This document shows, in pieces, positions 1 to 36,074 of a stretch of DNA of 36,361 nucleotides. Origin of the DNA: a virus (Duplodnaviria > Heunggongvirae > Uroviricota > Caudoviricetes); the IMG/VR virus record IMGVR_UViG_2579778635_000006. The stretch is one strand, 5' to 3'. The notes under the pieces are model-generated. The model ran no database searches, was not told where the DNA came from, and saw only the letters and a program-made list of their open reading frames with translations. Made by a program: the position numbers and the translations under genes. The stretch's first letter is position 1; every line of letters starts with the position of its first letter.

Positions 1-1056
1 TTATGACGGGGTAATGCCAACCGCTGCCGCCACTTTGTCGCCACTTGGCAGCGTTGCCAGAGGATTGAAACGGAGCGCCGTTTCCAGATGATCCGGTGCC
101 AGATGTGCGTAACGCATAGTCATTTTTATATCGTGGTGTCCGAGAATTTTTTGTAAGGCCAGAATGTTTCCACCCGACATCATGAAGTGCGCCGCAAACG
201 TATGGCGCAGAACGTGTGTGAGTTGACCGCGAGGGAGCACGATAGACGTTTTTTCCATTACGGATAAAAATTGAAAATAGCAGTCTGTGAAGAAATTGAA
301 TCCATCAAGCGCCATGATCTCTTCATAAAGCTCTTTACTGATAGGGATGCTTCTGTTTTTCTTCCCCTTCGTTCTTACAAAGGTAATTCGGTATTTAGTC
401 ACCTGTGATCGGGTAAGGTTTATTGCTTCTCGCCAGCGTGCGCCTGTGCTTAAGCATATCTTGACTACCAGTGCCAGAATTGGGTCCTGACGTTTGCAAT
501 CAGCCAGCAGTTCAACAATCTGCTCATGGGTAAGCCATGCCATCTCTTTTTCTGCGATGGTGAATTTTCGCATGTTCTCCAGTGGGTTTGGATACGACCA
601 TTCGCCCAGGCGGGATAGTTCGCTAAAAACACTACTTAGATAGCTTTGCTCCAGGTTAATGGTGACCGGGCTGGCTCCTTTCTTCCATTTCTCGCTGAAG
701 TAGATCTCACCGGTCAGGCGTTTATCTCGATAGTGGGCAAACATTTTAGAGGTGAGATTGGTTGCAAGAGGATTGCCTAGAGCGTCAACCATCAGCAGCA
801 ATTTGTCATAGACATGCTGCCCAGCAGTCAGAGATTTACCATGTAATTTGAACCATAGCTCAACCACGTCTTTCAGGGTTCGACGATCCACTGATTCGCC
901 CAGCCAGGGCTTTGATTCGGTTTCTTCCATCGTGTGACGCTCAAAAGCCAGAGCTTCGCCTTTGGTGGCGAATTGTTTACGCACACGACGCCCACTTCGT
1001 CCGGCGGGGTAACATTCGCAAAGCCATTTCCCTGTGGTGAGTTTTCGTACTGCCAT
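1..1056 (-). CDS. int: Tyrosine integrase, P2/186 Int family
   Basis: 351-aa ORF. The C-terminal catalytic region (LSTGARWREA, HVLRHTFAAHF, ILGHHDIKMTMRYAHL) fits tyrosine-recombinase signatures. It sits next to the att repeat and the cI repressor, as in P2 and 186. Confidence 0.95.
   Translation of the reverse strand: MAVRKLTTGKWLCECYPAGRSGRRVRKQFATKGEALAFERHTMEETESKPWLGESVDRRTLKDVVELWFKLHGKSLTAGQHVYDKLLLMVDALGNPLATNLTSKMFAHYRDKRLTGEIYFSEKWKKGASPVTINLEQSYLSSVFSELSRLGEWSYPNPLENMRKFTIAEKEMAWLTHEQIVELLADCKRQDPILALVVKICLSTGARWREAINLTRSQVTKYRITFVRTKGKKNRSIPISKELYEEIMALDGFNFFTDCYFQFLSVMEKTSIVLPRGQLTHVLRHTFAAHFMMSGGNILALQKILGHHDIKMTMRYAHLAPDHLETALRFNPLATLPSGDKVAAAVGITPS
22..44. repeat. attL: Putative attL core (cgctgccgccactttgtcgccac), overlapping the 3' end of int
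   Basis: Matches 33507-33529 at 21 of 23 positions, both mismatches C/T. It lies at the outer edge of the int gene. Confidence 0.6.
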
Positions 1057-1126: not shown

Positions 1127-3115
1127 TTAAAAAACATTCTTATCCCCGTGGAAAAAACGTGCAACGTTCAATAGCCAGTCGGGGGTTTTTATTTCATTTG
1201 AATTTGCTAGTATTTCTAAATATTTTTCGCAAAATTCATTTTTTTTTCCTGGTAATTCGAAATAATCCTCAATAGCTTTTTTTTCTGTAATGTTAAGATT
1301 CAAAGCGCCTCCCGATACTGAAGACTCCATTAACTGTGGGGTTTCCATAAAGGACAAACTAGTTTCTCCTTTAGTGTAAAGCATTTTCAGAGTTTCTACG
1401 TAGAAATCAGCATTAAGAGACTGCTCAATTTCTGTAGGTGGATAAACTCGATCATCAGTAACTTTAACAAGGCTTATATTAGATAAGTCTTTATCGAGCA
1501 AGAGTCTTCTTATTTTTATACTTGGTATTGTATCTGTAGCATCATATGGACTATATTTGTGATCTGTATCTAATAATAATAATACTTTTCCTGAGATTGT
1601 TGCTTTGCGATCCTCTAACGCCATAACGAGTAAATTATATATTTTTTTTACTGTAGGGGAGCCACCGACGGATAAAACTATTAGTTTCTCAATGTTTTCA
1701 TAATCCAAGTGAGCGGAAATATATTTTCTATCAGTTTTTCCTTCGCACAATATCCAGTTATAATTATTTCCAGATGTTATTGAATAAACAATTGATTGTG
1801 CTAAGTCGTGATTGCTTTTCATTTCTAAAACGTCAAGGTAAGAGCCATTTGACTCTTTTGCTAGTTCCTTTAATTCATCCTTGTAGTTTTCCAGATCGAG
1901 TGCTTTGATGTATGTTTGAGAGGGGGAAATATATATGGCTGTACCTGAGCCTGTAACAGGTAAAAAACCATACCAATGAGTTGTACAAATAGTCTGTATG
2001 CCTAGGTCGCTAATTTTTTTTATTTTATCAAATTGATTAAAACATGATGTGGCATGTAAGGATAATTCAGGTTCATCAACAGCAAGAATTGTTGAGTGCT
2101 GAGATTTTTGTGGATTATGTTTTAAGAAATTGGTAGCAAGATCTAGCAATGCTTTTCTTTTTTCTCCTGAGCTTAAATTTTGCACAGGGGTATCTTTATT
2201 AACATCATCAATATGATGTAATATTTTATCACTAAAATATGATTCAATTATTTTAGATATCATATGACGTTGAGTGAAACTATTTTGTCGCTGAGATGGT
2301 TTTTTAAATTGATATCGCCCCTCAAGCTTTGTAGTTAATTGTCTAATAAAATCATTTAAGTGCGAATTTATTGCTGTAATATCCTTTTTCTTAATGATTT
2401 TACTGATTTTTTGTTGGAGATTTTCACCTAATAAAGACTGTAATAAATCGCTTTCAATCCTTGAGTATTCGGATGTGGTTATTTCTGCAGGTAGGTAAAT
2501 ATAATTATAGATATCCTTAATTGTTATTAATAGCTTAGGTAGTATATTGTTAAAATGATATTTTTTATTATTCGTCGAACTATTTTCATTTGCGAGATCA
2601 TCAATTTGCAATCGATAATCATCTATAGATTCGAAAATTGACATGTAGGGGCGAGGAATATCATTTGCAGTTTCTTTTATTATCCCAAGGGGAATTAATA
2701 AATATTCATCTGAAGAATATTTGTATTCTAGTTGCTTCCTGTGTGATATAAATTTCTCAGCTATAGGACGTTGCAATGTATTAAAAACTTCACTTTCTAT
2801 TTGCCAAGTGATATCGCTTACGATTTCTAATGCTTTGTATAGGGAATTATTTATCTTTAGCTTGTTTTTATTTATTAAATAAATTGGCACAATGAATGGT
2901 TCTCGAGTATCGAAACCTTGACTGCGCGCTTCATTGTTGATATCAAGTCTATTGATATCAGTTTTATTTAGTACAATATCTAATGCTTGTAATATTGAGC
3001 TTTTCCCGACACCATTTTCACCAATGAGCCAAGAGGATTTATTGTTTAAAGTGAGAGGGATATAATGTTGATTTTTGAAATTCTTGAAATTTCGTAAAAT
3101 AACACCAATAATCAT
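1127..3115 (-). CDS. OLD-family ATP-dependent nuclease: N-terminal ABC-type ATPase fused to C-terminal TOPRIM (class-1 OLD or fused AriA-AriB/PARIS-like)
   Basis: 662-aa ORF. Walker A is GENGVGKSS near the N-terminus and Walker B-like is ILAVDEPELSLH. The C-terminal region has the TOPRIM signatures CEGKTD and LLLDTDHK. The gene is visibly AT-rich against the phage backbone and lies between cI and int. Confidence 0.8.
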   Translation of the reverse strand: MIIGVILRNFKNFKNQHYIPLTLNNKSSWLIGENGVGKSSILQALDIVLNKTDINRLDINNEARSQGFDTREPFIVPIYLINKNKLKINNSLYKALEIVSDITWQIESEVFNTLQRPIAEKFISHRKQLEYKYSSDEYLLIPLGIIKETANDIPRPYMSIFESIDDYRLQIDDLANENSSTNNKKYHFNNILPKLLITIKDIYNYIYLPAEITTSEYSRIESDLLQSLLGENLQQKISKIIKKKDITAINSHLNDFIRQLTTKLEGRYQFKKPSQRQNSFTQRHMISKIIESYFSDKILHHIDDVNKDTPVQNLSSGEKRKALLDLATNFLKHNPQKSQHSTILAVDEPELSLHATSCFNQFDKIKKISDLGIQTICTTHWYGFLPVTGSGTAIYISPSQTYIKALDLENYKDELKELAKESNGSYLDVLEMKSNHDLAQSIVYSITSGNNYNWILCEGKTDRKYISAHLDYENIEKLIVLSVGGSPTVKKIYNLLVMALEDRKATISGKVLLLLDTDHKYSPYDATDTIPSIKIRRLLLDKDLSNISLVKVTDDRVYPPTEIEQSLNADFYVETLKMLYTKGETSLSFMETPQLMESSVSGGALNLNITEKKAIEDYFELPGKKNEFCEKYLEILANSNEIKTPDWLLNVARFFHGDKNVF

Positions 3116-3135: not shown

Positions 3136-3726
3136 TTATTTACAAGTCATAATTACTTTAGCGATGATATTAACATCACTGATATTGCACTCTATTTTTT
3201 TTGATTTTGACTCTAGCATTATGCGGTTATTAGGTAACCTCATTAATTCTCGAACAGAATATATACCGTCAATGGCAATCAACCATAACCCATCATCAAT
3301 CTCATCCACACCTCGTCTCACGACATAAGTTATATGCTCATGCTCAAGAGCTGAGATATCTTTTAGGTCATTTGGCAATAGTGATAAATCAAAAATTAAA
3401 TAGCCATTATCAATCAGTTTGCCATCGATAATTTTCTCTCTGGTCAGGCTTACAACATGCGATTTTGCATCCACATACATGGGGCCTTCAGCTGCGGATA
3501 GCCAACGAAGTGAAATACCTGTTTCTAACGCACATTGAATTATCCAATCAGCGGGGAATGTATCTCTCATATATCGATTAGCTAACGTGCTTTTAGAAAC
3601 ACCAAGATGTTCAGCCAAAGCCTGTCGTGTCGTAAAGCCATAAGCTTCGACTAATCGCTCAATCGCAGCCTTACCACCTTTATTGGGATTTATTTTGATC
3701 TCACTTGGGTACTTTGATGTTGACAT
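3136..3726 (-). CDS. cI: Immunity repressor, 186 CI family
   Basis: 196-aa ORF. N-terminal HTH region (AYGFTTRQALAEHLGVSKSTLANRY) and C-terminal domain resemble 186 CI (recalled from memory). It is divergent from apl/cII across the switch region. Confidence 0.9.
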   Translation of the reverse strand: MSTSKYPSEIKINPNKGGKAAIERLVEAYGFTTRQALAEHLGVSKSTLANRYMRDTFPADWIIQCALETGISLRWLSAAEGPMYVDAKSHVVSLTREKIIDGKLIDNGYLIFDLSLLPNDLKDISALEHEHITYVVRRGVDEIDDGLWLIAIDGIYSVRELMRLPNNRIMLESKSKKIECNISDVNIIAKVIMTCK

Positions 3727-5876: not shown

Positions 5877-6730
5877 GCACCATCCTGAAATGGGCGGGAA
5901 ATAAAACCGCCATTATGTCCGAACTGAAAAAACATCTTCCTGCTGGTCCGCGACTGGTTGAACCTTTCGCGGGTTCCTGTGCAGTGATGATGGAGACGGA
6001 TTACCCCAGCTATCTTGTTGCGGATATTAATCCTGATTTAATCAACCTCTATAAAAAGGTTGCTGCTGATTGTGAGGCGTTTATATCTCGTGCCAGAGCT
6101 TTATTTGAGGAAGCAAACAGAGAGGTGGCTTATTACAACATAAGGCAGGAGTTTAATTACTCCACTGAAATTACTGATTTCATGAAAGCGGTATATTTTC
6201 TGTATCTCAATCGTCATGGTTACCGTGGGTTATGTCGTTATAACAAGAGCGAGCATTTCAACATTCCATACGGTAATTATAAAAATCCGTATTTCCCTGA
6301 AAAAGAAATTCGCGCATTTGCAGAGAAAGCCCAGCGAGCAACGTTTATCTGCGCCAGCTTTGATGAAACGCTGGCGATGCTGCAGGTGGGGGATGTGGTG
6401 TATTGCGATCCGCCTTATGACGGTACGTTTTCCGGCTATCACACTGATGGTTTCACTGAAGATGACCAGTATCACCTGGCATCTGTTCTTGAATATCGAT
6501 CATCAGAAGGTCATCCAGTCATTGTTTCTAACAGTGACACATCCCTGATCCGTTCGCTGTATCGAAATTTCACTCACCACTACATCAAGGCAAAACGCAG
6601 CATCGGCGTGTCGGCTGGCGAGAGTAAATCTGCAACAGAAATCATTGCTGTTTCCGGGGCGCGCTGCTGGGTGGGATTTGATCCTTCGTGTGGCGTGGAT
6701 AGTTCTGCTGTGTACGAGGTGCGTGTATGA
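5873..6730 (+). CDS. dam: DNA adenine methyltransferase (Dam-like, GATC-type N6-adenine MTase)
   Basis: Product begins [11 protein letters not shown] and contains the catalytic DPPY motif (VYCDPPYDG). ATG at 5873 overlaps the upstream stop. Confidence 0.9.
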
Positions 6731-9141
6731 GTCATGACGATATGAGCAACTCTAGCGGCTTTAACGAGGCCGCTGTAGCATTTTCATGGAACGGCCCGAA
6801 AAAGGCCATTAACCCTTATCTGGACCCGGCGGAAGTTGCGCTGGAGTCTGCACTTTCAAACCTGATCACTCTGTACGCTGCCGATAATGAGCAGGAACAG
6901 CTGCGCCGCGATGCACTGAGTGAGCAGGTCTGGGAGCGTTATTTCTTTAATGAATCCCGTGATCCTGTCCAGCGTGAAATGGAGCAGGATAAGCTCATTA
7001 GTCGGGCAAAGCTGGCGCATGAACAGCAGCGTTTTTACCCGGACATGGTCATTCTGGCGGACGTCAGCGCCCAGCCTTCCCACATCAGCAAGCCGCTGAT
7101 GCAACGTATCGAATATTTCAGCAGCCTGGGCAGGCCAAAGGCTTATTCTCGCTATCTGCGTGAGACGATTAAGCCATGTCTGGAACGACTGGAGCATGTA
7201 CGCGACAGTCAGCTATCCACTTCTTTTCGCTTTATGGCAAGCCATGAAGGGCTGGACGGCCTGCTGATCCTGCCTGAAATGAGTCAGGATCAGGTGAAAC
7301 GCCTGTCTACCCTTGTCGCTGCGCATATGAGCATGTGTCTTGATGCCGCTTGTGGTGATTTGTACGCCACCGATGATGTTAAGCCAGAAGAAATCCGCAA
7401 GACATGGGAAAGGGTGGCAGCGGAAACCCTACGTTTGGATGTCATCCCGCCTGCGTTTGAGCAACTCCGTCGGAAAAGAAACCGCCGTAAACCAGTGCCC
7501 TATGAACTCATTCCGGGCTCGCTGGCGCGTATGCTGTGCGCCGACTGGTGGTATCGGAAATTGTGGAAGATGCGTTGCGAATGGCGGGAAGAGCAGTTGC
7601 GTGCTGTCTGCCTGGTCAGCAAAAAAGCATCTCCCTATGTCAGCTATGAAGCTGTGATGCATAAACGTGAGCAGCGCCGTAAGTCGCTGGAGTTTTTCCG
7701 TTCTCATGAACTGGTGAACGAAGACGGAGACGCGCTGGATATGGAAGATGTGGTAAACGCCAGCTGCAGCAACCCGGCGCATCGCCGCAATGAGATGATG
7801 GCCTGTGTTAAAGGTCTGGAGCTTATCGCGGAAATGCGCGGTGACTGCGCCGTTTTCTACACCATTACCTGTCCGTCATGTTTCCATTCCACGCTAAATA
7901 ACGGCAGACCCAACCCGACCTGGAAAAACGCGACGGTAAGACAAAGCAGCGATTATCTGGTCGGTATGTTTGCTGCATTTCGTAAGGCGATGCACAAAGC
8001 CGGGTTGCGCTGGTATGGCGTGCGGGTGGCTGAGCCGCATCACGACGGCACAGTTCACTGGCACCTGTTGTGTTTCATGCGCAAAAAAGACCGCCGCGCC
8101 ATTACTGCATTGTTGCGTAAGTTTGCTATCCGTGAAGACCGCGAGGAGCTGGGCAATAACACGGGGCCGCGCTTTAAGTCTGAGCTGATTAACCCGCGCA
8201 AAGGAACGCCGACAAGCTACATAGCGAAATACATCAGTAAGAACATTGACGGGCGTGGTCTGGCTGGCGAGATCAGCAAGGAAACGGGTAAATCTCTTCG
8301 TGATAACGCTGAATACGTGAATGCCTGGGCGTCTTTGCATCGTGTTCAGCAATTCCGCTTCTTTGGTATTCCGGGGCGTCAGGCTTACCGTGAACTGCGA
8401 TTGCTGGCTGGTCAGGCGGCAAGGCAGCAGGGTGACAAAAAAGCAGGTGTGCCGGTACTGGATAACCCGCGCCTTGATGCCATTCTGGCTGCTGCTGATG
8501 CTGGTTGTTTTGCCACCTATATCATGAAGCAGGGAGGTGTACTGGTTCCCCGTAAATATCACCTCATCAGAACTGCTTATGAAATTAACGAAGAGCCGAC
8601 CGCCTATGGCGATCACGGTATTCGTATTTATGGCATCTGGTCACCCATTGCAGAGGGCAAGATCTGCACTCATGCAGTGAAGTGGAAAATGGTTCGTAAG
8701 GCCGTTGACGTTCAGGAGGCGGCAGCCGACCAGGGCGCTTGCGCCCCTTGGACTCGTGGCAATAACTGTCCCCTTGCTGAAAATTTGAACCAACAAGGGA
8801 AAGACAAATCAGCTGATGGGGACTCCAGAACGGATATTACCCGTATGAATGACAAGGAGTTGCACGATTACCTGCACAGTATGAGCAAAAAAGAGCGCCG
8901 GGAACTGGCTGCAAGGTTACGCCAGGTGAAACCGAAACGGCGTAAAGACTACAAACAGCGAATTACAGACCATCAGCGACAGCAGCTCGTCTATGAACTG
9001 AAGTCCAGGGGATTTGATGGCAGCGAGAAAGAAGTCGATTTGCTCCTTCGCGGCGGCAGTATTCCGTCAGGAGCAGGCCTGCGTATCTTCTATCGGAACC
9101 AGCGTCTGAAGGAAGATGATAAGTGGCGGAACCTGTATTAA
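6727..9141 (+). CDS. A: Rolling-circle replication initiator, P2 gpA family
   Basis: 804-aa ORF with the HUH-type motif VHWHLLCF and a tyrosine-containing region (YIAKYISK). Position before the cos-proximal region is as in P2. Confidence 0.95.
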
Positions 9142-10733: not shown

Positions 10734-12131
10734 ATGAAGATGTATGAAGTAATTGATATATCAGCGCAGGAAATTAAGGCGTTGTTAAACACTGCTGAAG
10801 ATCATTTCAATGATTTTAAAAGTAAGCAAATAGCGCCTAATAAATTACAAGAAACTTTTGTAGCATTTGCAAATGCTGATGGCGGTAATATTTATATTGG
10901 CATAGAGGATGCAGCTTCGGGGAGAGAGCGTATATCTGGTTTCAATGAGCCAGAGGAAGCGAATGCTATTATTTCGACCTTATTGGAAAATACTAATCCA
11001 GCTGTTGAGAATGTTGAGGTGGAATATTTAAGAACACCTTCCAATGGATTGATTTTACATGTGGATATACCAAAAAGCCCCAAAGTTCATTACACGGCCT
11101 CTGGCGATTGCTTTATAAGAGCTAACGCGCAAAAATTAAAAATAAAAGGTGAGCGAATTACTCAGCTTTCCTATTCTAAAGGCGCAGAACCTTATGAAAA
11201 AAAAGCAGTGGATATAGTTGAAGTAGAAGATATTCTTGAAAGTGAATATTATTCTGATTATTTACGTAGAATAGGAACGACTCAGTCACCGAGAGTTTTT
11301 TTAAAAAAACAACGACTGTTAACTAAGAAAGATGGTGAATTTGTCCCGAATGTAGGCTGTGTTTTACTATTTGATGAAGAGCCTCAAGGATGTTTAGATA
11401 CTCGATGTGCTGTAAAAGTATATCGGCTTAGAACAACTGAAGCAGAGTACAAACGTGAACAATTACAGGAAGATCCTGTAACGATTGAGGGGCCACTTGA
11501 AGTGGTTATTTTAAATACAATAGCAAAAGTAAAAGAATATGTTGATGGAGCATCATTCAAAGACGGCGAAAATCTAGTAAAACTTAGCTATCCTGCAGAA
11601 GCATTGAAGGAAATATTAGTTAATGCTGTTATTCATAGAGATTACAGCCAAAAGGATGATGTGCACGTAAAAGTTTATGACAACCGGATTGAAGTTCAAA
11701 GTCCAGGCAGATTGCCTGGATACATGACTATTAATAATTTATATGAAGAGCGGTTTTCTCGTAATCCAAATTTAGTGCGTTTGTTGCATAAACTTCCCAA
11801 TCCAGTGAACCATGATATTGGTGAGGGGCTTGATACTGCAAAAAATGAATTGCGTAAGGCCGGGTTGGTAGCCCCGGTATTTGAAGAAAGGGGCAATAAT
11901 TTTGTTGTAATAGTTAAGCATCAAACAATAGCCTCAATTGAGGATGTGATTATTAATTATTTTAAAGAAAATCCAACGGGACAGCTCACAAATAAGTTGG
12001 TTAGACAATTAAGTGGCGAAGATGACCTTCAAAAGGTTAAAAAGGCATTGCAAAAGTTAAGGGAGGAGGGCGTAATAAAACCATTAGATCCTAACGCGAA
12101 TCCTTTCAAATTTAAATATATTAAAGCTTAA
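10734..12131 (+). CDS. AlbA_2 (Schlafen-like) + HATPase_c_4 + C-terminal wHTH protein; candidate defence/exclusion cargo
   Basis: 465-aa ORF with AAGGA upstream. N-terminal AlbA_2-type signature (DFKSK...FVAFANADGGNIYIGIED), central HATPase_c_4-type signature (NAVIHRDY...DNRIEVQSPGRLPG...SRNP), then a helix-rich tail. Strongly AT-rich against the backbone. Followed by a bidirectional terminator. Confidence 0.8.
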   Translation: MKMYEVIDISAQEIKALLNTAEDHFNDFKSKQIAPNKLQETFVAFANADGGNIYIGIEDAASGRERISGFNEPEEANAIISTLLENTNPAVENVEVEYLRTPSNGLILHVDIPKSPKVHYTASGDCFIRANAQKLKIKGERITQLSYSKGAEPYEKKAVDIVEVEDILESEYYSDYLRRIGTTQSPRVFLKKQRLLTKKDGEFVPNVGCVLLFDEEPQGCLDTRCAVKVYRLRTTEAEYKREQLQEDPVTIEGPLEVVILNTIAKVKEYVDGASFKDGENLVKLSYPAEALKEILVNAVIHRDYSQKDDVHVKVYDNRIEVQSPGRLPGYMTINNLYEERFSRNPNLVRLLHKLPNPVNHDIGEGLDTAKNELRKAGLVAPVFEERGNNFVVIVKHQTIASIEDVIINYFKENPTGQLTNKLVRQLSGEDDLQKVKKALQKLREEGVIKPLDPNANPFKFKYIKA

Positions 12132-12182: not shown

Positions 12183-13208
12183 TTATAGTTTATAGTGTTC
12201 GAAAGTTATTGCTTCTTCATTGATCCAATAGTTGAGATCTTGTAACTTCTTCTGAAGTGGCATCAGTTCATTCCGAACAAATACCCGGCTGGCCTTCTCC
12301 ACATCCCCAAACCCTCCAACATTATTAGGCATAATCCCCATCATTTGCGGCGGCACGCGGTGCGCAGCCATCATGTCGTCGCGGCTGACATTTTTGATAT
12401 TCAGAAATTCATCCTTCGCCGCGACTTCTGATAACGGGATGATTTGAAGCCCGTCCTTTTTGCCGTTAGGCGAGTACATAAACAGATTGCGGAAGTTGCC
12501 TGGACCTTTGGCGCTTTTCATTGCGTTGCGGAGGTTGTTCACATCCTCCTGGTTCTGCGCGGCATCGGTCATGTACATGATGAAGCCTGCATGGCTGCCG
12601 TTGATGTAATACTTACGGCGGAACAGCGTGGCGGACTCGTTGAGCAGGGCTGACGGAATGGCAGAAAGATAGCCGGGCAGGCCGTAGATCTCCTGGTTAA
12701 TGTCCGGTTCCATCAGATGAAAAATGCTGCCTTTCGTGAACTGATACGGCTGGGTTGTCATACCGTATTGCACAAACCAGTAGGTATCCAGGTCTAACCC
12801 GCGTCGGGTGTATTTTGCCAGAGCAGGCTCAAGGGCGATAACTTCACCGAAGCGGTTCGTGCGTTTCTCCAGGTAGGAGTTACCAAATACCAGATAGTCC
12901 TGCACAAAACGTGAAAAAGCCTGCTGGCTGAGCAGCGGATGGGGGATGTAGGTACTGGTCAGAATGTTGCATTTCACCGCAATTGGTGAACTGTGATGCA
13001 CGGCGGCGCGGAAGGTGCGTGCCAGTCCGTCAAAGCTTACTGGCGGCTCATACCAGCGATCTGTCTGTACGCATTCCACATAGTCCAGTAGTTCGCGGCG
13101 GTCCAGAACAGGAACGGGATCACCGAAGCTGAATGCTTCGGCTGTAGTTTGACTTTTATGCTGGATCTGGTTCGTCGACGCAGCGCGGTTCTTCTTACTC
13201 TTTCCCAT
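12183..13208 (-). CDS. Q: Portal protein (P2 gpQ family)
   Basis: Strong similarity to P2 Q as recalled (WYEPPVS, KDEFLN, SRDD, AHRVPPQ, MGI). ATG start overlaps the stop of P by 1 nt. Confidence 0.95.
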   Translation of the reverse strand: MGKSKKNRAASTNQIQHKSQTTAEAFSFGDPVPVLDRRELLDYVECVQTDRWYEPPVSFDGLARTFRAAVHHSSPIAVKCNILTSTYIPHPLLSQQAFSRFVQDYLVFGNSYLEKRTNRFGEVIALEPALAKYTRRGLDLDTYWFVQYGMTTQPYQFTKGSIFHLMEPDINQEIYGLPGYLSAIPSALLNESATLFRRKYYINGSHAGFIMYMTDAAQNQEDVNNLRNAMKSAKGPGNFRNLFMYSPNGKKDGLQIIPLSEVAAKDEFLNIKNVSRDDMMAAHRVPPQMMGIMPNNVGGFGDVEKASRVFVRNELMPLQKKLQDLNYWINEEAITFEHYKL

Positions 13209-14974
13209 CAAAAAATCTCCACAATATTACTGGTATTGGCGGACTCGCCCTGCAGTGGTTCGTTAAACAGTGCGTGCATTGTTGCCCAGGCCAGATCGGC
13301 GTGGCTGGCTTCTTCGCTGCGGCTGGCTTCATAGGTCGGGCGGTTGCCGCTGGCGGTGGTGGCGCGACGGATTGCCATGAATGACTGCGCAATGTCGGTG
13401 TGCCCGGCGTCAAACTCCAGACGGCGGTGGCTGATAATGTCGTAGGCCTTGAGCACCAGGGCGTTTTTAACGTTGGGGTTGTAGACAAACTCCCGGACGG
13501 CAGGAAAGAATGCTTTCACGTTCTCGTAAACCCCGTGACCAACGCCGGTTGAGTCGATACCGATATAAGTCACGTTGTACTGTTCGGTCAGTTTTTTGAT
13601 GGCGTCAGCCTGAGCGCGGAAGTCCATCCCGCGCCACTGGTGACGCTCAAGAATGCGGAATTTACCGCCCGATACGGCTGGCGGTGCCACCACCACGCAT
13701 CCGGCACTGTCGCCGTTCTGAGTACCTTTTGCGGGGTCATAACCGATCCATACTTCGCGCCAGCCAAACGGGCGCAGGGCCAGTGCATGAAAGTCGGTCC
13801 AGATTTCCCAGCTGTCCACCATGCACGCCTGCAGTTCGCTGAGCGGGAACACGGACGCGAGATCGTCCACGAACTCGCACATCAGCAGGTTCTGGTATTC
13901 GTCCGGGCTGTACTCCATGCGCAGCTGGTCGAGGTCGAACAGGTTACAGCCGCCGCGCACCGCATCTTCCACGGTGACTATCTGGCGGTATTGCCCGTCT
14001 GCGCACAGCAGGCCGGGGGCCAGATTGCTGTGGGACAGGTCGATGTCCACCTTGTCAGCTTTGTTGCGTCCACGGTTGAACAGCGCACCGGACCAGAACG
14101 GATAAGCACTGTGGGTCAGGCTGGATGGCGTGGAAAAATAGGTTTGTCGCCATTTCTTGTGAATAGCCATCCCGGAAGCCACTTTGCGCAGCTCCTGGAA
14201 TTTCGGGATCCAGAAATATTCATCCAGATACAGGTTGCCGTGGTAACTCTGGGCCGTGCGGGCATTGGTTCCGAGGAAGTAAAGCGTGGCCCCATTAGGA
14301 AGCACCATCGGATCGCCTTTCAGCTCCACCTCCACTTCTTTGGCGAAGTCGATGATGTACTGCTTAAAGACGTGGGCCTGTGCCTTACTGGCGGAAAGGA
14401 AAATCTGGTTACGTCCGGTCAGCAGGGCGTCAATCAGGGCTTCACGGGCAAAATAGAAGGTCGCGCCGATCTGGCGTGACTTCAGCAGGTTGCGGATGCG
14501 GTTGGTTTTTCCGGCTTCCCACCAGTGGCGCTGGTAGTTGAACATGGAGGAATGAAAGATTTCTTCCAGCTTCTCAATCTGTTCATCGGTGAAAACATTC
14601 TTTTCCGGCTGACGGCGCGGGCCTTTGTTACGGTTGGCGACGTTAGGGTTTAAGTCGGCTTCGTTGCCGCCATTGTTAAACTTGCCGATCCGCGCGTGGC
14701 GTTCCGACTGGCGCGCCAGCAGGTCAATCTCTTTGAAATCTTTCCCTTCTTTGTGCTCCTTCATAATGAGCTGGCAGTAGCGTGCGGCGGTGGTGAGCTG
14801 CATCTGATCCAGCGGCCCATAGTCACCCCACTTGTCGCGTTTTTTCCAGCTGTGAACGGTTGCAACTTTCTCGCCCAGCATTTCAGCAATGCGGGCGACG
14901 CGGTATCCCTGAAAGTACAGCAGCATGGCCTGCCGACGGGGATCGAGATCTGCGGGTGTCAGTGTGGTGTTCAT
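13208..14974 (-). CDS. P: Terminase large (ATPase) subunit (P2 gpP family)
   Basis: 588-aa ORF upstream of and co-oriented with Q; classic P2 P-Q arrangement. Confidence 0.95.
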   Translation of the reverse strand: MNTTLTPADLDPRRQAMLLYFQGYRVARIAEMLGEKVATVHSWKKRDKWGDYGPLDQMQLTTAARYCQLIMKEHKEGKDFKEIDLLARQSERHARIGKFNNGGNEADLNPNVANRNKGPRRQPEKNVFTDEQIEKLEEIFHSSMFNYQRHWWEAGKTNRIRNLLKSRQIGATFYFAREALIDALLTGRNQIFLSASKAQAHVFKQYIIDFAKEVEVELKGDPMVLPNGATLYFLGTNARTAQSYHGNLYLDEYFWIPKFQELRKVASGMAIHKKWRQTYFSTPSSLTHSAYPFWSGALFNRGRNKADKVDIDLSHSNLAPGLLCADGQYRQIVTVEDAVRGGCNLFDLDQLRMEYSPDEYQNLLMCEFVDDLASVFPLSELQACMVDSWEIWTDFHALALRPFGWREVWIGYDPAKGTQNGDSAGCVVVAPPAVSGGKFRILERHQWRGMDFRAQADAIKKLTEQYNVTYIGIDSTGVGHGVYENVKAFFPAVREFVYNPNVKNALVLKAYDIISHRRLEFDAGHTDIAQSFMAIRRATTASGNRPTYEASRSEEASHADLAWATMHALFNEPLQGESANTSNIVEIF

Positions 14975-20485: not shown

Positions 20486-20924
20486 ACTGCAGAAGGTGGA
20501 CGACTGGCTGAGTGCCTTGCTGGCGAATCTGGAACCAGCCAAGAGAAGCAGCATGATGCGCCAGCTGGCGCAGGAACTGCGCCGGACACAGCAGCAGAAT
20601 ATCAGGATGCAGCGCAATCCAGATGGCAGCAGTTATGAACCGCGCAGGGTAACAGCACGCAGTAAAAAAGGCCGTATCAAACGGCAGATGTTTACAAAAC
20701 TTCGCACCACAAAATACCTGAAAACCGCCGCCAGCGAGGACTCTGCCAGCGTGCAGTTTGAAGGTAAGGTGCAGCGCATTGCCCGCGTCCACCATTATGG
20801 CCTGCGTGATCGCGTCAGCCGCAAAGGACCGGAGGTCCGTTACGCAGAGCGTCGCCTTCTGGGCGTAAATGATGATGTTGAGGCAATGACCCGCGACATG
20901 ATTCTGCAATGGTTGGCGGGGTGA
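20478..20924 (+). CDS. S: Tail completion protein (P2 gpS family)
   Basis: 148-aa ORF overlapping the R stop; GTG start. Confidence 0.85.
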   Translation: MAELQKVDDWLSALLANLEPAKRSSMMRQLAQELRRTQQQNIRMQRNPDGSSYEPRRVTARSKKGRIKRQMFTKLRTTKYLKTAASEDSASVQFEGKVQRIARVHHYGLRDRVSRKGPEVRYAERRLLGVNDDVEAMTRDMILQWLAG

Positions 20925-20928
20925 TTTT

Positions 20929-20946
20929 TGTATCAGCACTGATACA
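20929..20946 (+). promoter_or_regulatory. Ogr-type late promoter dyad TGT-N12-ACA upstream of V (inside the palindrome ttgtatcag-ca-ctgatacaa)
   Basis: Perfect 9-bp-arm palindrome seen directly between S and V. It contains TGT-N12-ACA at the position of the P2 V-operon late promoter. Confidence 0.6.
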
Positions 20947-20992
20947 AGTTGCAGCACTGCCGCCTTTCTTCCCCTGATGGCAACCTTTCCCT

Positions 20993-21571
20993 ATGAACGC
21001 ACAATTAACCGAAATCATGCGCCTTATCACCAATCTGATCCGCACTGGTGTAGTCACCGAAGTGGACCGGGAACACTGGCTTTGTCGGGTGAAAACGGGC
21101 GACCTTGAAACCAACTGGATTAACTGGCTGACGCTGCGCGCGGGCAAATCGCGCACCTGGTGGAAACCGTCTGTGGGTGAGCAGGTTGTGCTGTTCAGCC
21201 TTGGCGGCAATCTGGAAACCGCGTTTGCCCTGCCTGCGGTCTACTCAAACCAGTTTCCGCCACCTTCAGGCTCTGAGGACGGCAACGTGACGGAATACCC
21301 GGACGGCGGCTGGTTTGAATACGAACCCGCCACCGGGCGCTGGTATGTCAGGGGCATCAAATCAATGGTCATTGAGGCCGCTGACAACATCACCATGAAA
21401 ACCAGTGAGTTTGTACTGGAGGCTGACCGCACGCGCATTAACAGCGAAGTGGTGATCAATGGTGGCGTTACCCAGGGCGGCGGAGCGATGAGTTCTAACG
21501 GGATCGTGGTTGATGCGCATCAGCATACTGGCGTCCTGAAAGGCGGCGATACAACCGGAGGCCCGGTATGA
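20993..21571 (+). CDS. V: Baseplate spike (P2 gpV family)
   Basis: N-terminus resembles P2 V (LIRTGVV, RAGKSRTWW, PSVGEQV). Confidence 0.9.
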   Translation: MNAQLTEIMRLITNLIRTGVVTEVDREHWLCRVKTGDLETNWINWLTLRAGKSRTWWKPSVGEQVVLFSLGGNLETAFALPAVYSNQFPPPSGSEDGNVTEYPDGGWFEYEPATGRWYVRGIKSMVIEAADNITMKTSEFVLEADRTRINSEVVINGGVTQGGGAMSSNGIVVDAHQHTGVLKGGDTTGGPV

Positions 21572-22822: not shown

Positions 22823-23420
22823 TCTGCTGCCACCGGGTTCAACTTCACTGGAGCGCCGACTGGCGCAAACCTGTAGCGGGATTTCTGATTTGCAGGTGCC
22901 GCTGCGTGACTTGTGGAATCCGGCTACCTGTCCGGTCAGTTTCCTGCCTTATCTCGCCTGGGCGTTCTCTGTGGATCGCTGGGACGAGGGCTGGACAGAA
23001 AGCGTCAAGCGCCAGGTGGTGAAGGATGCTTTTTATATTCATCAGCATAAAGGGACCACCAGTGCCGTGCGGCGGGTGGTGGAGCCGTTCGGCTTTCTGA
23101 TCCGCATTATTGAGTGGTGGCAGACCGGAGAGGCACCGGGCACGTTTCGTCTGGATATCGGCGTGCAGGACCAGGGCATCACTGAAGATACCTATCTGGA
23201 ACTTGAGCGACTGATAAGCGATGCCAAACCATGTAGCCGTCACATGAGCGGCATGTCCATCAACCTGCAGACCAGCGGCCCGCATTGGGTGGGAGCCGCC
23301 AGCTATCTTGGCGAAGAAATCACGATCTATCCGTATATCAACGAAACAATTATTTCCGGCGGCACCGCGCATGAAGGCGGGGCGGTCCATGTTATTGACA
23401 CAATGAGAGTGAATCCATGA
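22815..23420 (+). CDS. I: Baseplate/tail-fibre attachment protein (P2 gpI family)
   Basis: 201 aa, overlapping the J stop and preceding H. Confidence 0.9.
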   Translation: MNSLLPPGSTSLERRLAQTCSGISDLQVPLRDLWNPATCPVSFLPYLAWAFSVDRWDEGWTESVKRQVVKDAFYIHQHKGTTSAVRRVVEPFGFLIRIIEWWQTGEAPGTFRLDIGVQDQGITEDTYLELERLISDAKPCSRHMSGMSINLQTSGPHWVGAASYLGEEITIYPYINETIISGGTAHEGGAVHVIDTMRVNP

Positions 23421-25840
23421 GCACAAAATTTTATACCCTGCTGACGGATATTGGCGCGGCGAAACTTGCCAGCGCCGCCGCGCTTGGTGTGCCGCTAAAA
23501 ATTACCCATATGGCGGTGGGCGATGGCGGCGGAGCATTGCCGACGCCGGACGCAAAGCAGACTGCACTGGTAAATGAGAAACGCCGGGCTGCGCTGAATA
23601 TGCTCTATATCGACCCGCAGAACAGCAGCCAGATTATTGCTGAACAGGTGATCCCTGAAAACGAGGGCGGTTGGTGGATACGTGAAGTGGGCCTGTTTGA
23701 TGAGTCAGGGGCATTGATTGCCGTGGGGAACTGCCCGGAAAGCTATAAACCGCAACTGGCTGAAGGCAGCGGGCGCACCCAGACCGTGCGCATGGTGCTG
23801 ATTACCAGCAGTACGGACAATATCACCCTGAAAATCGACCCTGCTGTAGTACTGGCAACTCGCAAGTATGTGGATGACAAAATATCAGAGCACGAACAGT
23901 CACGACGTCACCCGGACGCCTCGCTGACCGCAAAAGGTTTTACTCAGTTAAGCAGTGCGACCAACAGTGAATCCGAAATACTGGCCGCAACACCGAAGGC
24001 TGTGAAGGCTGCATATGATCTTGCAGCAGGTAAAGCATCCGCCAGTCACACACACCCGTGGAATCAGATAACAGGTGTACCTGCAGCCTCGCTGACGGTA
24101 AAAGGCACTGTGCAACTCAGCAGCGCCACTAACAGCACATCAGAAACGCAGGCCGCCACTCCAAAGGCAGTGAAGGCGGCATATGACCTTGCAGCAGGTA
24201 AGGCACCTGTCAGTCACACACACCCGTGGAATCAGATAACGGATGTGCCTGCAGCTTCACTGACGGTAAAAGGCACCGTGCAACTCAGCAGTGCCACTAA
24301 CAGCACGTCAGAAACGCAGGCTGCCACACCAAAGGCAGTGAAGGCGGCATATGACCTTGCAGCAGGTAAGGCACCTGTCAGTCACACGCACCCGTGGAGC
24401 CAGATAACGGATGTGCCTGCAGCTTCACTGACGGTAAAAGGCACCGTGCAACTCAGCAGCGCCACTAACAGCACGTCAGAAACGCAGGCTGCCACACCAA
24501 AGGCAGTGAAGGCGGCATATGACCTTGCAGCAGGTAAGGCACCTGTCAGTCACACGCACCCGTGGAGCCAGATAACGGATGTGCCTGCAGCTTCACTGAC
24601 GGTAAAAGGCACCGTGCAACTCAGCAGCGCCACTAACAGCACGTCAGAAACGCAGGCTGCCACACCAAAGGCAGTGAAGGCGGCATATGACCTTGCAGCA
24701 GGTAAGGCACCTGTCAGTCACACGCACCCGTGGAGCCAGATAACGGATGTGCCTGCAGCTTCACTGACGGTAAAAGGCACCGTGCAACTCAGCAGCGCCA
24801 CTAACAGCACGTCAGAAACGCAGGCTGCCACACCAAAGGCAGTGAAGGCGGCATATGACCTTGCAGCAGGTAAGGCACCTGTCAGTCACACGCATCCGTG
24901 GAGCCAGATAACGGATGTGCCTGCAGCTTCACTGACGGTAAAAGGTACCGTGCAACTCAGCAGCGCCACTAACAGCACGTCAGAAACGCAGGCTGCCACA
25001 CCAAAAGCTGTGAAGGCTGTATATGACCTTGCCAATGGAAAACAACCTGCCGACGCCACACTGACCGCACTGGCAGGCCTTGCCACTGCGGCAGACAAAC
25101 TTCCGTATTTTACGGGGAATGATACAGCCAGCCTGACAACCCTGACTAACGTTGGACGGAATATTCTGGATAAAGCAAGTACACAGGCGGTTATTCAATA
25201 TCTTGGTCTGAGCGATGCAAGTGGATACGTTGGACGCTGGCTGAATACCCGGGTTTTCACCTCATCAGGTACGTACACCCCGACGCCAGGAACAAAACGG
25301 ATCAGGGTCACAATAACGGGCGGCGGTGGCGGAGGGGGCGGCTGCAAGGCTACATCCAATAATGAAACGTTTTTCGGCGCTGGCGGTGGGGCCGGTGGAA
25401 CAATAATTTCAATAATGACCCCAACACAGAATAGTTATCCAGTCACTATCGGCGCAGGTGGGGCCGGTGGTGTTAGTGCGACGAACGGCACCAGTGGCGG
25501 GAATAGCGTATTCGCATCGTTAATTGCTCCTGGTGGCGCAGGTGGCGGGAAAGTGGGAGTTACAAACACAAACGGCGGTAACGGAGGTGTGCCGAGTACT
25601 GGCGATATCCGCATCACTGGTGGAAATGGAGGCGACGGTCAGTCCGGAAATATCGGCGTCAGCGGTGAAGGCGGAACATCGCACTGGGGCGGCGGTGGAC
25701 GCGCAGGCGCTGGCGGTGGTGTTAGTGGTAAGGCATATGGTTCAGGTGGCGGTGGCGCATACGATGCCGGTTATAGCGGAACCAGTATGACAGGCGGGAA
25801 AGGTGCTGCTGGGATTTGTATTATCGAGGAGTTTGCATAA
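23417..25840 (+). CDS. H: Tail fibre protein (P2 gpH family): conserved N-terminus, internal 56-aa tandem repeats, glycine-rich C-terminal domain
   Basis: N-terminal ~160 aa are P2 H-like (MSTKFYTLLTDIGAAKLASAAALG...). The middle holds about 6.6 tandem 56-aa repeats. The C-terminus is Gly-rich (GGGGGGGG, GAGGAGG, NGGNGG). Confidence 0.9.
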   Translation: MSTKFYTLLTDIGAAKLASAAALGVPLKITHMAVGDGGGALPTPDAKQTALVNEKRRAALNMLYIDPQNSSQIIAEQVIPENEGGWWIREVGLFDESGALIAVGNCPESYKPQLAEGSGRTQTVRMVLITSSTDNITLKIDPAVVLATRKYVDDKISEHEQSRRHPDASLTAKGFTQLSSATNSESEILAATPKAVKAAYDLAAGKASASHTHPWNQITGVPAASLTVKGTVQLSSATNSTSETQAATPKAVKAAYDLAAGKAPVSHTHPWNQITDVPAASLTVKGTVQLSSATNSTSETQAATPKAVKAAYDLAAGKAPVSHTHPWSQITDVPAASLTVKGTVQLSSATNSTSETQAATPKAVKAAYDLAAGKAPVSHTHPWSQITDVPAASLTVKGTVQLSSATNSTSETQAATPKAVKAAYDLAAGKAPVSHTHPWSQITDVPAASLTVKGTVQLSSATNSTSETQAATPKAVKAAYDLAAGKAPVSHTHPWSQITDVPAASLTVKGTVQLSSATNSTSETQAATPKAVKAVYDLANGKQPADATLTALAGLATAADKLPYFTGNDTASLTTLTNVGRNILDKASTQAVIQYLGLSDASGYVGRWLNTRVFTSSGTYTPTPGTKRIRVTITGGGGGGGGCKATSNNETFFGAGGGAGGTIISIMTPTQNSYPVTIGAGGAGGVSATNGTSGGNSVFASLIAPGGAGGGKVGVTNTNGGNGGVPSTGDIRITGGNGGDGQSGNIGVSGEGGTSHWGGGGRAGAGGGVSGKAYGSGGGGAYDAGYSGTSMTGGKGAAGICIIEEFA
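23913..25030 (+). repeat. In-frame tandem repeat array, 168-bp unit, about 6.6 copies, inside H
   Basis: Unit starts (ctgcagc) at 24081, 24249, 24417, 24585, 24753 and 24921, with a diverged first copy near 23913. Copies 3-6 look nucleotide-identical by eye. Confidence 0.9.
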
Positions 25841-26253
25841 TGAATGCGTCATATGCAGTTATTGAAAATGGGATGGTTGTGAATGTCATTGTCTGGGATG
25901 GCGAGGCTGAATTCACAGTGCCGGATAATCAGCAGCTCATTGATATTTCTGATATCAGTGAGCATCCAGGAATTGGCTGGGGGTATTCAGACGGGGTATT
26001 TACTGCGCCGCTCCCTCCGGAACGTTCTCATAATGAACTGGTAGCTGACGCTGAACAGAAAAAACAGTCGCTGATAGACGCAGCAATGGCCAATATCAGC
26101 GTGATTCAGTTAAAGCTGCAGGCCGGGCGCAAACTGACGCAAGAAGAAACTACCCGACTTAACGTTGTGCTGGATTATATCGAGGCTGTGACGGCAACAG
26201 ATACCAGCACCGCACCTGATATCATTTGGCCTGTTTTCCCTGCAAGCAGATAA
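25840..26253 (+). CDS. G: Tail fibre assembly chaperone (P2 gpG / Tfa family)
   Basis: ATG at 25840 overlaps the H stop (TAATG), with GAGGA upstream. It follows the tail fibre gene. Confidence 0.85.
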   Translation: MNASYAVIENGMVVNVIVWDGEAEFTVPDNQQLIDISDISEHPGIGWGYSDGVFTAPLPPERSHNELVADAEQKKQSLIDAAMANISVIQLKLQAGRKLTQEETTRLNVVLDYIEAVTATDTSTAPDIIWPVFPASR

Positions 26254-26265
26254 ATACCGTCATTT

Positions 26266-26283
26266 TGTGTGAATAACGGTACA
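26266..26283 (+). promoter_or_regulatory. Ogr-type late promoter dyad TGT-N12-ACA upstream of FI
   Basis: tgt-gtgaataacggt-aca seen directly, about 75 nt upstream of the FI start. Confidence 0.55.
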
Positions 26284-26359
26284 ACTGCGCTTAGCTGCTT
26301 GTCAGACACAATCACTTCAACATAGGGCGAAGCCTAATCCAATCAGGAGGTTCGCCACT

Positions 26360-27532
26360 ATGGCTCAGGATTACCACCACGGAGTGCGCGTTGTTGAAGT
26401 CAACGAAGGCACTCGATCCATTACTACGGTGAGCACCGCCATCGTGGGCATGGTCTGCACGGGCGATGATGCCGATGCAAAAATGTTCCCTCTTAATAAA
26501 CCCGTGCTGATCACTGATGTGCTTACTGCCAGCGGTAAAGCGGGTGAGTCAGGTACGCTGGCCCGTTCGCTGGATGCCATCGCTGACCAGGCAAAACCCG
26601 TGACCGTTGTTGTGCGTGTGCCGCAGGGTGAAACGGAAGAAGAAACCACGACCAATATCATCGGCGCAGTGACTGCTGAAGGTAAAAAAACTGGTATGAA
26701 AGCCCTGTTATCTGCCCAGTCACAGCTCGGTGTTAAACCGCGCATTCTCGGCGTGCCGGGGCACGATAACAAAGCCGTTGCTACTGAGTTGCTGGGCGTG
26801 GCGCAAAGCCTGCGTGGGTTTGCTTACCTGTCAGCGTATGGTTGCAAGACGGTGCAGGAAGCAATCACTTACCGTAAAAACTTCAGCCAGCGTGAAGGGA
26901 TGCTGATCTGGCCCGACTTTACTGGCTGGGACACGGTGCTGAATGCCGAAGCAACGGCATATGCCACCGCCCGTGCGCTTGGTCTGCGCGCCAAAATTGA
27001 TGAGCAGACCGGATGGCACAAAAGCCTGTCCAACGTGGGCGTGAACGGTGTCACCGGAATTTCTGCTGATGTATTCTGGGATCTGCAGGACCCGGCAACT
27101 GATGCGGGACTGCTTAACCAGAACGATGTTACCACACTTATCCGCAAAGACGGCTTTCGCTTCTGGGGTTCCCGCTGTCTGAGTGATGACCCACTCTTTG
27201 CCTTTGAAAACTACACCCGCACGGCGCAGGTGCTGATGGACACGATGGCAGAAGCGCCAATGTGGGCGGTCGACAAACCGCTGAATCCGTCGCTGGCCCG
27301 CGACATTATCGAAGGTATCCGCGCCAAAATGCGCAGCCTGATCAGTCAGGGCTATCTCATTGGTGGCGATTGCTGGCTGGATGAGTCGGTGAACGACAAA
27401 GACACTCTGAAAGCTGGAAAACTCACCATCGACTACGACTACACACCAGTGCCGCCACTTGAAAACCTGATGCTGCGTCAGCGCATCACCGATCAGTACC
27501 TGGTGAATTTCGCCAGCCAGGTCAGCGCGTAA
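26360..27532 (+). CDS. FI: Contractile tail sheath protein (P2 gpFI family)
   Basis: 390 aa with AGGAGG upstream; first gene of the F operon. Confidence 0.95.
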
Positions 27533-33741: not shown

Positions 33742-35427
33742 TTATCCTAATCCTGGCCATACCATGACGATGATTGTCCCTGCCAGCGTCAGCAGGACGT
33801 TGGCGATTGCGTAGGTGCCCGCATAGCCCAGCGCAGGGATGTTACTGCGAGCTGTATCACTGATGATCTCCATTGCCGGCGCGCAGGTGCGTGCGCCCAT
33901 CATTGCGCCGAACAACAGTGCGCGGTTCATTCGCAATACATAAGCACCGAACAAGAAACAGATAACCACGGGCACAAGACTGACAATTAATCCGGCAATC
34001 AACATCTGACCGCCAATCGCGCCCAGGCCGTTATTAATACCGCTACCGGCGCTCAGACCAACGCCTGCCATAAACACCATCAAGCCGAACTCTTTCACCA
34101 TGCTTAATGCACCTTGCGGAATGTAACCGAAGGTCGGGTGGTTAGCACGCATAAAGCCCAGCATAATTCCGGCGAATAACAACCCGGCAGCGTTCCCCAT
34201 GCCGAAACTGAATGTGCTGAACTGGAAGGTGATCATCCCGATCATCAGCCCAATAACAAAGAAGGCGCAGAATGCCAGCAGGTCAGTGACCTGGCTGTGA
34301 ATCGAGATAAAGCCGATGCGATCGGCGATGGTTTTTACGCGGCGGGCATCGCCGCTGACTTGTAAAACGTCACCTTTGTTAAGCACGACGTTGTCATCTA
34401 TCGGCATCTCAATCTGGCTACGAATGACGCGGTTAAGGAAGCAACCGTGATCGGTCAACTTCAGTTGTGCGAGACGTTTACCTACAGCGTTATGGTTTTT
34501 AACGACCACTTCTTCAGTGACGATACGCATGTCGAGAAGGTCACGATCGAAAACTTCTTTACCGTTACGGAAGCTGGGATCGAGTCGGGCATGGGCGTCG
34601 GGATAGCCTACCAACGCTATTTCATCGCCCATTTGTAGCACGGCATCACCGTCTGGATTTGCCAGAATCCCGTTACGTCGAATACGTTCAATGTAGCAGC
34701 CGGTTTGTCGATAAATACCCAGTTCACGCAGATTTTTGCCGTCGGTCCAGGCCACCAGTTCCGGGCCGACGCGATAGGCGCGGATCACCGGTAAATAAAC
34801 CTTACGGTTGGCATCAGTGTCCAGGCCACGTTCGCGGGCGATTTGCTGGGCGCTGGTCTGTAAGTCCTGATGCTGCAATTTCGGCAAGTAACGCGCACCA
34901 ACAATCAAACTCACCAGACCGATTAAATAGGTTAAGGCATACCCGAGGCTCAGATTATCCAGTGCCAGTGAGAGCTGCCTGCTTTCCATGCCGGAATGAC
35001 GCAGTGTATCGCCAGCACCGACCAGAACCGGTGTCGACGTCATAGAGCCTGCTAACATACCGGCCGTCAGGCCAATATCCCAGCCAAACAGCTTACCTAA
35101 CCCTAAGGCGATCACCAGCGCACTGCCAACCATCACCAGTGCTAACATTAGGTAATTTTTCCCATCGCGAAAAAAAATGGAAAAAAAGTTCGGTCCGGCT
35201 TCGACCCCGACGCAGAAAATAAACAGCATAAAGCCAAGATTAAGCGCATCGGTGTTAATGCTGAAATGTTGTTGGCCTAATAACAGCGATACGACTAAAA
35301 CGCCAATGGAATTACCCAGTTGGATCGAACCAAGTCGTAACTTTCCGAGACATAGCCCAAGCGCGAGGACCACAAATAATAACAGAATGTAATTCCCATT
35401 TAACAATTCGGCGACGTTTATATTCAC
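33742..35427 (-). CDS. ybjL: Putative transport protein YbjL (AAE-family transporter with two TrkA_C domains), host gene
   Basis: 561-aa product recognised as E. coli YbjL. Apparent GTG start. Confidence 0.93.
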
Positions 35428-35696
35428 GGAGGCTAACTTCTTGTTTACTAGTAAGCTGTTGAAAGAAATGGTAATTTACGATAATGTTTTTTACCAGAAT
35501 TCAGGGCGCAGATTCATTCAGCGCACCTAAACGATAGTAAAGTAACAATATATTTTACTAGTGTAATCACATTAGGTATCAACGGCTATATGAATTGCGT
35601 TGGCCTATATTAGCATGGAATGCGAAGCGGCTTTATCTTACTGAACGCCACACTGGCGAAAAATGTGTTCGATAGACGCAGTGTCAGGAGGAACGA

Positions 35697-36074
35697 GTGA
35701 AACATAAACAACGTTGGGCGGGGGCAATCTGCTGTTTTGTCCTCTTCATTGTGGTGTGCCTTTTTCTGGCGACGCACATGAAAGGCGCTTTTCGGGCTGC
35801 CGGGCATCCTGAAATCGGCTTGCTATTTTTCATTCTTCCTGGAGCAGTCGCCAGCTTCTTTTCACAGCGTAGAGAAGTCCTGAAACCTCTGTTTGGCGCA
35901 ATGCTGGCGGCACCCTGTTCGATGCTCATTATGCGGCTGTTTTTTTCACCGACGCGCTCATTCTGGCAAGAGCTGGCATGGTTACTAAGCGCGGTGTTCT
36001 GGTGTGCGCTGGGGGCACTGTGTTTCTTATTTATCAGTAGTTTGTTTAAACCACAGCACAGAAAAAATCAGTAA
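35697..36074 (+). CDS. ybjM: Inner membrane protein YbjM, host gene
   Basis: 125-aa hydrophobic protein with the conserved ybjL-ybjM-grxA synteny. Confidence 0.9.
   Translation: MKHKQRWAGAICCFVLFIVVCLFLATHMKGAFRAAGHPEIGLLFFILPGAVASFFSQRREVLKPLFGAMLAAPCSMLIMRLFFSPTRSFWQELAWLLSAVFWCALGALCFLFISSLFKPQHRKNQ

Follow-up and report, generated by a model that had tools for sequence, protein, structure and literature searches.

We analysed a 36,361-nt stretch of P2-like prophage DNA (IMG/VR record IMGVR_UViG_2579778635_000006; hereafter the window, to which all coordinates refer), with attention to its tail-fibre gene H (23417..25840, + strand). This open reading frame (ORF) encodes 807 amino acids (aa) and lies directly downstream of the gene for tail protein I (Tail_P2_I). 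Pfam resolves the H protein into Phage_tail_fib at residues 1–150 (E 5.5e-65), seven copies of Phage_fiber_2, and Gly_rich_2 at residues 616–804. The N-terminal baseplate-attachment domain (23417..23866, +) is common to P2 H; residues 1–266 are 63% identical to P2 H by BLASTP, and the DNA for this end of the gene is present in 1029 of 5426 complete Escherichia coli genomes. The shaft (23983..25032, +) consists of 6.2 tandem copies of a 168-bp unit at 96% match (Tandem Repeats Finder), each unit corresponding to a 56-aa Phage_fiber_2 repeat, with the motif QLSSATNS repeated at 56-aa intervals between residues 177 and 513. Lengths of 527, 583, 639, 695 and 807 aa occur among homologues that share the N-terminus and tip, in steps of 56 aa that indicate variation of fibre length through repeat copy number; the longest version seen among them is the 807-aa H of the window. 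A conserved linker (GKQPADATLTALAGLATAADKLPYFTGNDT...YLGL; 25037..25210, +) is, by BLASTP, the last P2 H-like stretch, and beyond it lies a C-terminal tip, TNF-like plus rich in glycine (PF21722, Gly_rich_2; 25211..25837, +), the presumed receptor-binding module.

The glycine enrichment of the tip is extreme. Residues 615–807 (window 25259–25837) contain 65 glycines in 193 positions (33.7%), against 34 in 614 (5.5%) upstream (Fisher p = 1.7e-21), and the other open frames in the window reach at most 14.5% in any 193-aa stretch. A run of eight glycines occupies residues 635–642, and the tip holds 16 more runs of 2–4, extending to residue 794. An earlier note, made from the letters alone, had described the last ~190 aa of H as glycine-rich and quoted motifs that are indeed present. 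It set the region at 25260–25840, which takes in the glycine-rich part but needs correction at the start: the frame begins at 25259, and the folded domain begins ~55 nt upstream, its first beta-strand being residues 608–614.

PF21722 (Gly_rich_2, "Glycine-rich domain") scored 49.6 bits on the whole protein and 52.1 bits on the domain alone, against a cut-off of 24.3, covering profile positions 2–224 of 226 and ending three residues short of the stop codon. An exhaustive HMMER search of 1.84 billion cluster representatives returned 7939 clusters (50% identity) at E ≤ 1e-3 and 1229 at E ≤ 1e-10, so the tip family is very large. Of the complete proteins among the 150 representatives listed, nearly all have a match that reaches to within ~3 residues of the C-terminus. 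We aligned 108 representatives (39–96% identity) with the query. These 109 sequences have five invariant and 16 nearly invariant glycine columns, with high entropy between the motifs, a nearly fixed domain length and few indels. NCBIfam has no family for the H tip, the only match being a sub-threshold one to Bgr_08870 in the repeat region, and our literature searches found no papers on the E. coli P2-like tip or citing PF21722.

When the PDB was searched by sequence with residues 595–807, only the fibre of cyanophage Pam3 was returned (7YFW, 7YPX); the match is weak (E 0.02), yet it is collinear and almost gapless over 198 residues. In the solved Pam3 protein, gp24, six glycine-rich loops prolong the strands of a TNF-like beta-sandwich, and 12 glycine-rich motifs are packed in a four-layer lattice with variable distal loops (PMC9608196, PMC9942802). 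The H C-terminus is a TG domain of the Pam3 gp24 type (PF21722), a widespread and known kind of domain rather than a new kind of adhesin.

Exchange junction and carriers of the tip

Canonical P2 gpH is homologous to the window's H over its N-terminal 266 residues and again over the linker, and the gene order I-H-tfa-FI is the same. H linker residues 541–600 resemble P2 H residues 326–383 (...KLPYFTGNDxASL...YLGL), the BLASTP similarity ending at YLGL(S)D. Nothing aligns by BLASTP past H residue ~598–600 (P2 H 383), leaving P2 H residues 384–669 without a counterpart in H. PF21722 does not match P2 H, and the PF21446 match of P2 H is absent from the window's H. The exchange junction is at H residues 596–598 (LGL, 25202–25210), or about window position 25202. 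The proposal of the earlier note that the tip is mosaic and unlike canonical P2 H is thus borne out: alignment to P2 H ends at YLGL and does not run the full length of the C-terminus, and the similarity to other carriers starts at the same point.

DNA comparisons place the breakpoint likewise. In 148 complete E. coli genomes a 421-nt probe across the junction matched over its whole length. Where the fibre context in an E. coli record was a different one, the probe matched only from query position 189–253, ~203 in most of the records listed, which puts the breakpoint at about window position 25202. In several other proteins, similarity sets in exactly at (L/F)GLxDxSGYVGR. Judged from these alignments, the tip is an exchangeable cassette joined to a P2-type shaft at a conserved ...YLGL linker, with the exact exchange junction lying between …YLGL and xDxSGYVGR….

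At least five different fibre scaffolds bear the tip: two P2-like lineages, a 308-aa protein at the stfP locus, P1-like plasmids and the jumbo phage Goslar. The second P2-like H lineage starts MTVKYYAIL and the 308-aa proteins start MHRIDTKTAQ. Goslar gp090 has 1324 aa and a P1 S-like shaft. Other carriers are 361-aa proteins starting MGDNTLMATNNF or MGSITLMAKNDF and a 360-aa protein whose stored sequence starts MFDGSANISIP. Tip and tfa together were found in ~365 of the 5426 complete E. coli genomes (~7%), with 79 of the places on plasmids. These plasmids are non-mobilizable and ~90 kb in size; one that we inspected carries an IncY replicon, as do P1-like phage-plasmids.

Goslar, a virulent jumbo phage, provides the closest example in an isolated, plaque-forming phage. 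The tip of its 1324-aa fibre is 72% identical to the H tip, starting exactly at LGL, and both match PF21722. The adjacent gp089 encodes a Tfa protein 66% identical to the window's Tfa over its full length, in the same gene order. A tblastn search of a phage collection with the tip found only Goslar, and only half of the domain, because glycine runs are hidden by low-complexity filtering; a distant DNA search of the collection recovered the full cassette in Goslar at 67% identity.

Annotation of the tip is inconsistent, its carriers being called "carbohydrate kinase", "glycine-rich domain-containing protein", "pyocin knob" or "hypothetical". In NCBI/nr the name "carbohydrate kinase" is given to hundreds of 308-aa proteins of E. 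coli that bear the tip (84–98% identical) and have no kinase domain; their loci are annotated stfP wherever a context is listed. The kinase name is probably a legacy misannotation. NCBIfam has no family for the 308-aa tip protein.

The Tfa chaperone

The gene following H (25840..26253, +) encodes a 137-aa Tfa tail-fibre assembly chaperone (Caudo_TAP, E 3.5e-20), its ATG overlapping the H stop codon (TAATG). The Caudo_TAP profile (PF02413) scored 72.9 bits against a cut-off of 22.1, covering profile positions 25–130 only, because the N-terminal part of Tfa is tip-specific. That part (25840..26019, +) is a beta domain with strands at residues 3–55 in the AlphaFold2 (AF2) model; the C-terminal part (26020..26253, +) is a generic Caudo_TAP helical domain with helices at residues 64–119. 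In the phage collection the N-terminal half matched only Goslar, itself the bearer of a glycine-rich tip. By contrast, window 26065–26233 shows 82–83% DNA identity to tfa genes of many tip-less phages (HK106, SfIV, Klebsiella P2-like).

The linkage of chaperone to tip is tight. In 49 of 49 IMG/VR contigs, whatever the fibre scaffold, the final base of the tip stop codon is also the first of a Tfa gene with the same N-terminus; these contigs are the loci with that stop codon present, found by a single-protein query that returns close relatives only. Family members are typically 136–138 aa long, Goslar gp089 having 138. P2 G, at 175 aa, is only weakly similar to the window's Tfa (25% identity, E 0.012). 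NCBIfam has no family for Tfa, and a PDB sequence search with it gave only chance RAD52 matches, with no detectable sequence likeness to the Pam3 chaperone.

In Pam3 the chaperone gp25 binds the tip through a non-conserved N-terminal domain (PMC9608196, PMC9942802). By analogy, the N-terminal beta domain of Tfa would hold the tip during folding, and the generic C-terminal helices would drive trimerisation. The chaperone must travel with its tip, and this, together with the junction, is of practical use in engineering P2- or P1-based particles and in predicting host range from prophage sequence. The Pam3 gp24/gp25 system (7YPX, 7YFW) differs in its setting: there the tip sits on a short alpha-helical stalk, making a minimal 280-aa fibre for a cyanobacterial host, whereas in the window it has been joined to a P2-type fibre of ~600 aa whose shaft is built of repeats, and the host is enterobacterial.

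In E. coli strain 98206, RefSeq marks an identical tfa (locus 20801–21142) as an incomplete pseudogene. Since 136–138 aa is the normal length and the TAATG overlap is conserved, this label is probably an annotation artefact. The Z/fun gene, which P2 has between G and FI, is absent here, and there is no inverted alternative tip cassette. The interval from tfa to the next ORF (26360–27532, equivalent to the tail sheath gene of strain 98206) is ~100 nt (26254–26359).

Tip fold, rival readings and receptor

The AF2 model of the tip, a monomer, has a mean predicted local distance difference test score (pLDDT) of 94.5 and a predicted template modelling score of 0.90, with 191 of 213 residues at pLDDT ≥ 90. 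It contains a few short beta-strands and, over the glycine motifs, long segments assigned to neither helix nor strand. The predicted fold is a TNF-like beta-sandwich with a glycine-rich hairpin lattice and is superposable on the solved gp24. Enzymes are absent from its fold neighbours, which comprise fibre tips and a receptor domain that binds cytokines; the order of structural neighbours was the same in Foldseek. The receptor domain is the TG domain of ALK/LTK (PDB 7LIR, 7NX3, 7NX1), which in metazoans belongs to the ectodomain of a receptor tyrosine kinase with protein cytokines as ligands; its similarity to the H tip is far weaker, with Foldseek TM-scores of ~0.3.

Taken as a whole, the best explanation, to which we give a probability of roughly 85%, is that H carries an exchangeable Pam3 gp24-type tip on a P2-type shaft, served by its own Tfa. 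H residues ~599–807 would fold into a small TNF-like beta-sandwich in which long glycine-rich hairpins connect the strands. The hairpins would pack as polyglycine-II-like helices into a lattice, exposing the short variable segments between the glycine motifs. Obg-type GTPases have a classic polyglycine-II bundle as their N-terminal domain. Pam3 and tail-fibre biology in general lead us to infer a trimeric fibre with three tip domains at its distal end and variable segments that contact the receptor; the H C-terminus is probably a receptor-binding tip. A fold and a likely role can thereby be assigned to a tip present in ~7% of complete E. coli genomes, allowing better annotation.

The earlier note had likened the tip to T-even gp38, and the fusion of a gp38-type adhesin (T2/T6/S16 family) to a P2 fibre has some appeal. 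Glycine-rich motifs alternate with variable segments, as do the glycine-rich motifs and hypervariable segments (GRM/HVS) of gp38, both kinds of tip stand at the ends of fibres, and a local likeness between the Pam3 gp24 and S16 gp38 lattices has been published (PMC9608196, PMC13243192). Tests by HMM, by profile alignment, by sequence and by whole-domain fold nevertheless all went against it. Neither GP38 (PF05268) nor Gp38_N (PF21721) matched H at E ≤ 0.01, while the positive control, S16 gp38, matched these models at E 4e-73 and 1.1e-19 and had no PF21722 match at E ≤ 1. In hhalign, the 109-sequence tip profile scored a probability of 1.2% against S16 gp38, with 13 columns aligned, all in the glycine run, and no whole-domain similarity to PDB 6F45 was found. 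Gp38 of T-even phages and S16 (PF05268; PDB 6F45) is moreover a separate polypeptide that caps gp37 through its own N-terminal attachment domain, its middle domain is a beta-helix and its lattice has three layers and 10 motifs; the H tip is read in the same frame as the rest of H, and neither a stop codon nor a start signal separates it from the shaft. The two are alike in principle, a polyglycine-II lattice displaying hypervariable loops at the distal fibre tip, and have no detectable relationship of sequence, profile or whole-domain fold. Such a lattice with variable loops has been noted for Pam3, Bxb1 and S16 (PMC9608196, PMC13243192). Because the design principle is shared, the intuition that the tip works like gp38 is reasonable; that it is a gp38-type tip fails, and we consider it very unlikely.

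It is likewise highly improbable that the tip is an enzyme, whether a carbohydrate kinase or a lipopolysaccharide (LPS)-modifying or depolymerising activity, rather than a pure binding module. The database name of the hundreds of 308-aa proteins speaks for a kinase, and the authors of the work on TFP_Y, a Klebsiella phage fibre protein, leave "binding or catalysis" open (PMC12671077). Nothing backs the name, however, which has the look of legacy annotation; Pfam and NCBIfam gave no match to a kinase or hydrolase family, which disposes of the kinase reading, and the fold neighbours are the fibre tips and cytokine-binding domain named above. Hardly credible at all is the view that the region lacks a defined fold, being a low-complexity, disordered spacer or an artefact of sequencing or repeats. 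A glycine content of 33.7% and the masking of much of the region by the BLAST low-complexity filter would fit a spacer. Against this stand the 191 residues at high pLDDT, the near-fixed length, rare indels and invariant glycines across the 108 representatives, the thousands of homologues and the existence of a solved one. Within the limits of a predicted structure, the spacer or linker reading is refuted.

As to the receptor of the gp24-type tip, two phages offer a weak lead, by which it may be the LPS outer core. The Goslar receptor on BW25113 is recorded from genome-wide screens as LPS, sugar GluII (bioRxiv 10.64898/2026.04.02.716166, Table S1). In Klebsiella phage SCNJ1-Y, host-range and host-adaptation mutations in TFP_Y map to the glycine-rich domain, the receptor is LPS, and LPS triggers DNA ejection (PMC12671077). 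TFP_Y has a TNF-like plus glycine-rich architecture resembling Pam3 gp24, and we liken it to the H tip on that paper's statements (PMC12671077).

Several points weigh against this overall interpretation. The tip structure is a predicted monomer rather than an experimental one. Variation among close tip alleles is concentrated at residues ~663–737, with the varying positions at 644–648, 663–672, 686–703, 709–716 and 727–737. Among close homologues such positions fall both in loop tips and in predicted beta-strands, so recombination between alleles may have as large a share in the variation as selection focused on the tips. The receptor-binding protein of Goslar is listed as unknown (bioRxiv 10.64898/2026.04.02.716166, Table S1), which makes the link between LPS and the tip circumstantial, and the literature searched held no adsorption or receptor data for H or its close E. 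coli relatives.

A bolder and tentative proposal, which we think somewhat doubtful, is that tip and Tfa form a self-contained portable cassette for the E. coli LPS outer core, at which the dependence of Goslar on GluII hints, moved among P2-like prophages, P1-like phage-plasmids, stfP-locus genes, 361-aa fibres and a jumbo phage, and always breaking at LGL. If true, P2/P4-based delivery particles could be retargeted with a natural plug-in module whose fusion point is defined.

Prophage surroundings

At the left end of the window, between the integrase (1–1056, minus strand) and a CI-type repressor (3136–3726, minus), lies a gene for a 662-aa protein (1127–3115, minus) whose ATPase domains, AAA_15/AAA_21, are OLD- or AbiEii-like. 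It is a candidate gene for anti-phage defence carried by the prophage.

At 10734–12131 (+), Schlafen AlbA_2 and HATPase_c_4 domains occur together in a 465-aa protein, encoded in a variable region that is flanked by ORFs of 804 aa (6727–9141) and 342 aa (12183–13211, minus). These flanking ORFs correspond to the replication endonuclease and portal genes of strain 98206, in which that position is taken by one gene of the AIPR family and one of the ComF family. Different genes at one position mark it as a cargo hotspot.

At the right end (33742–36074), ORFs of 561 aa (minus) and 125 aa (+) have the lengths and order of ybjL and ybjM, which flank a near-identical prophage in strain 98206. This match, made by length only, suggests that the integration site is the same in both.
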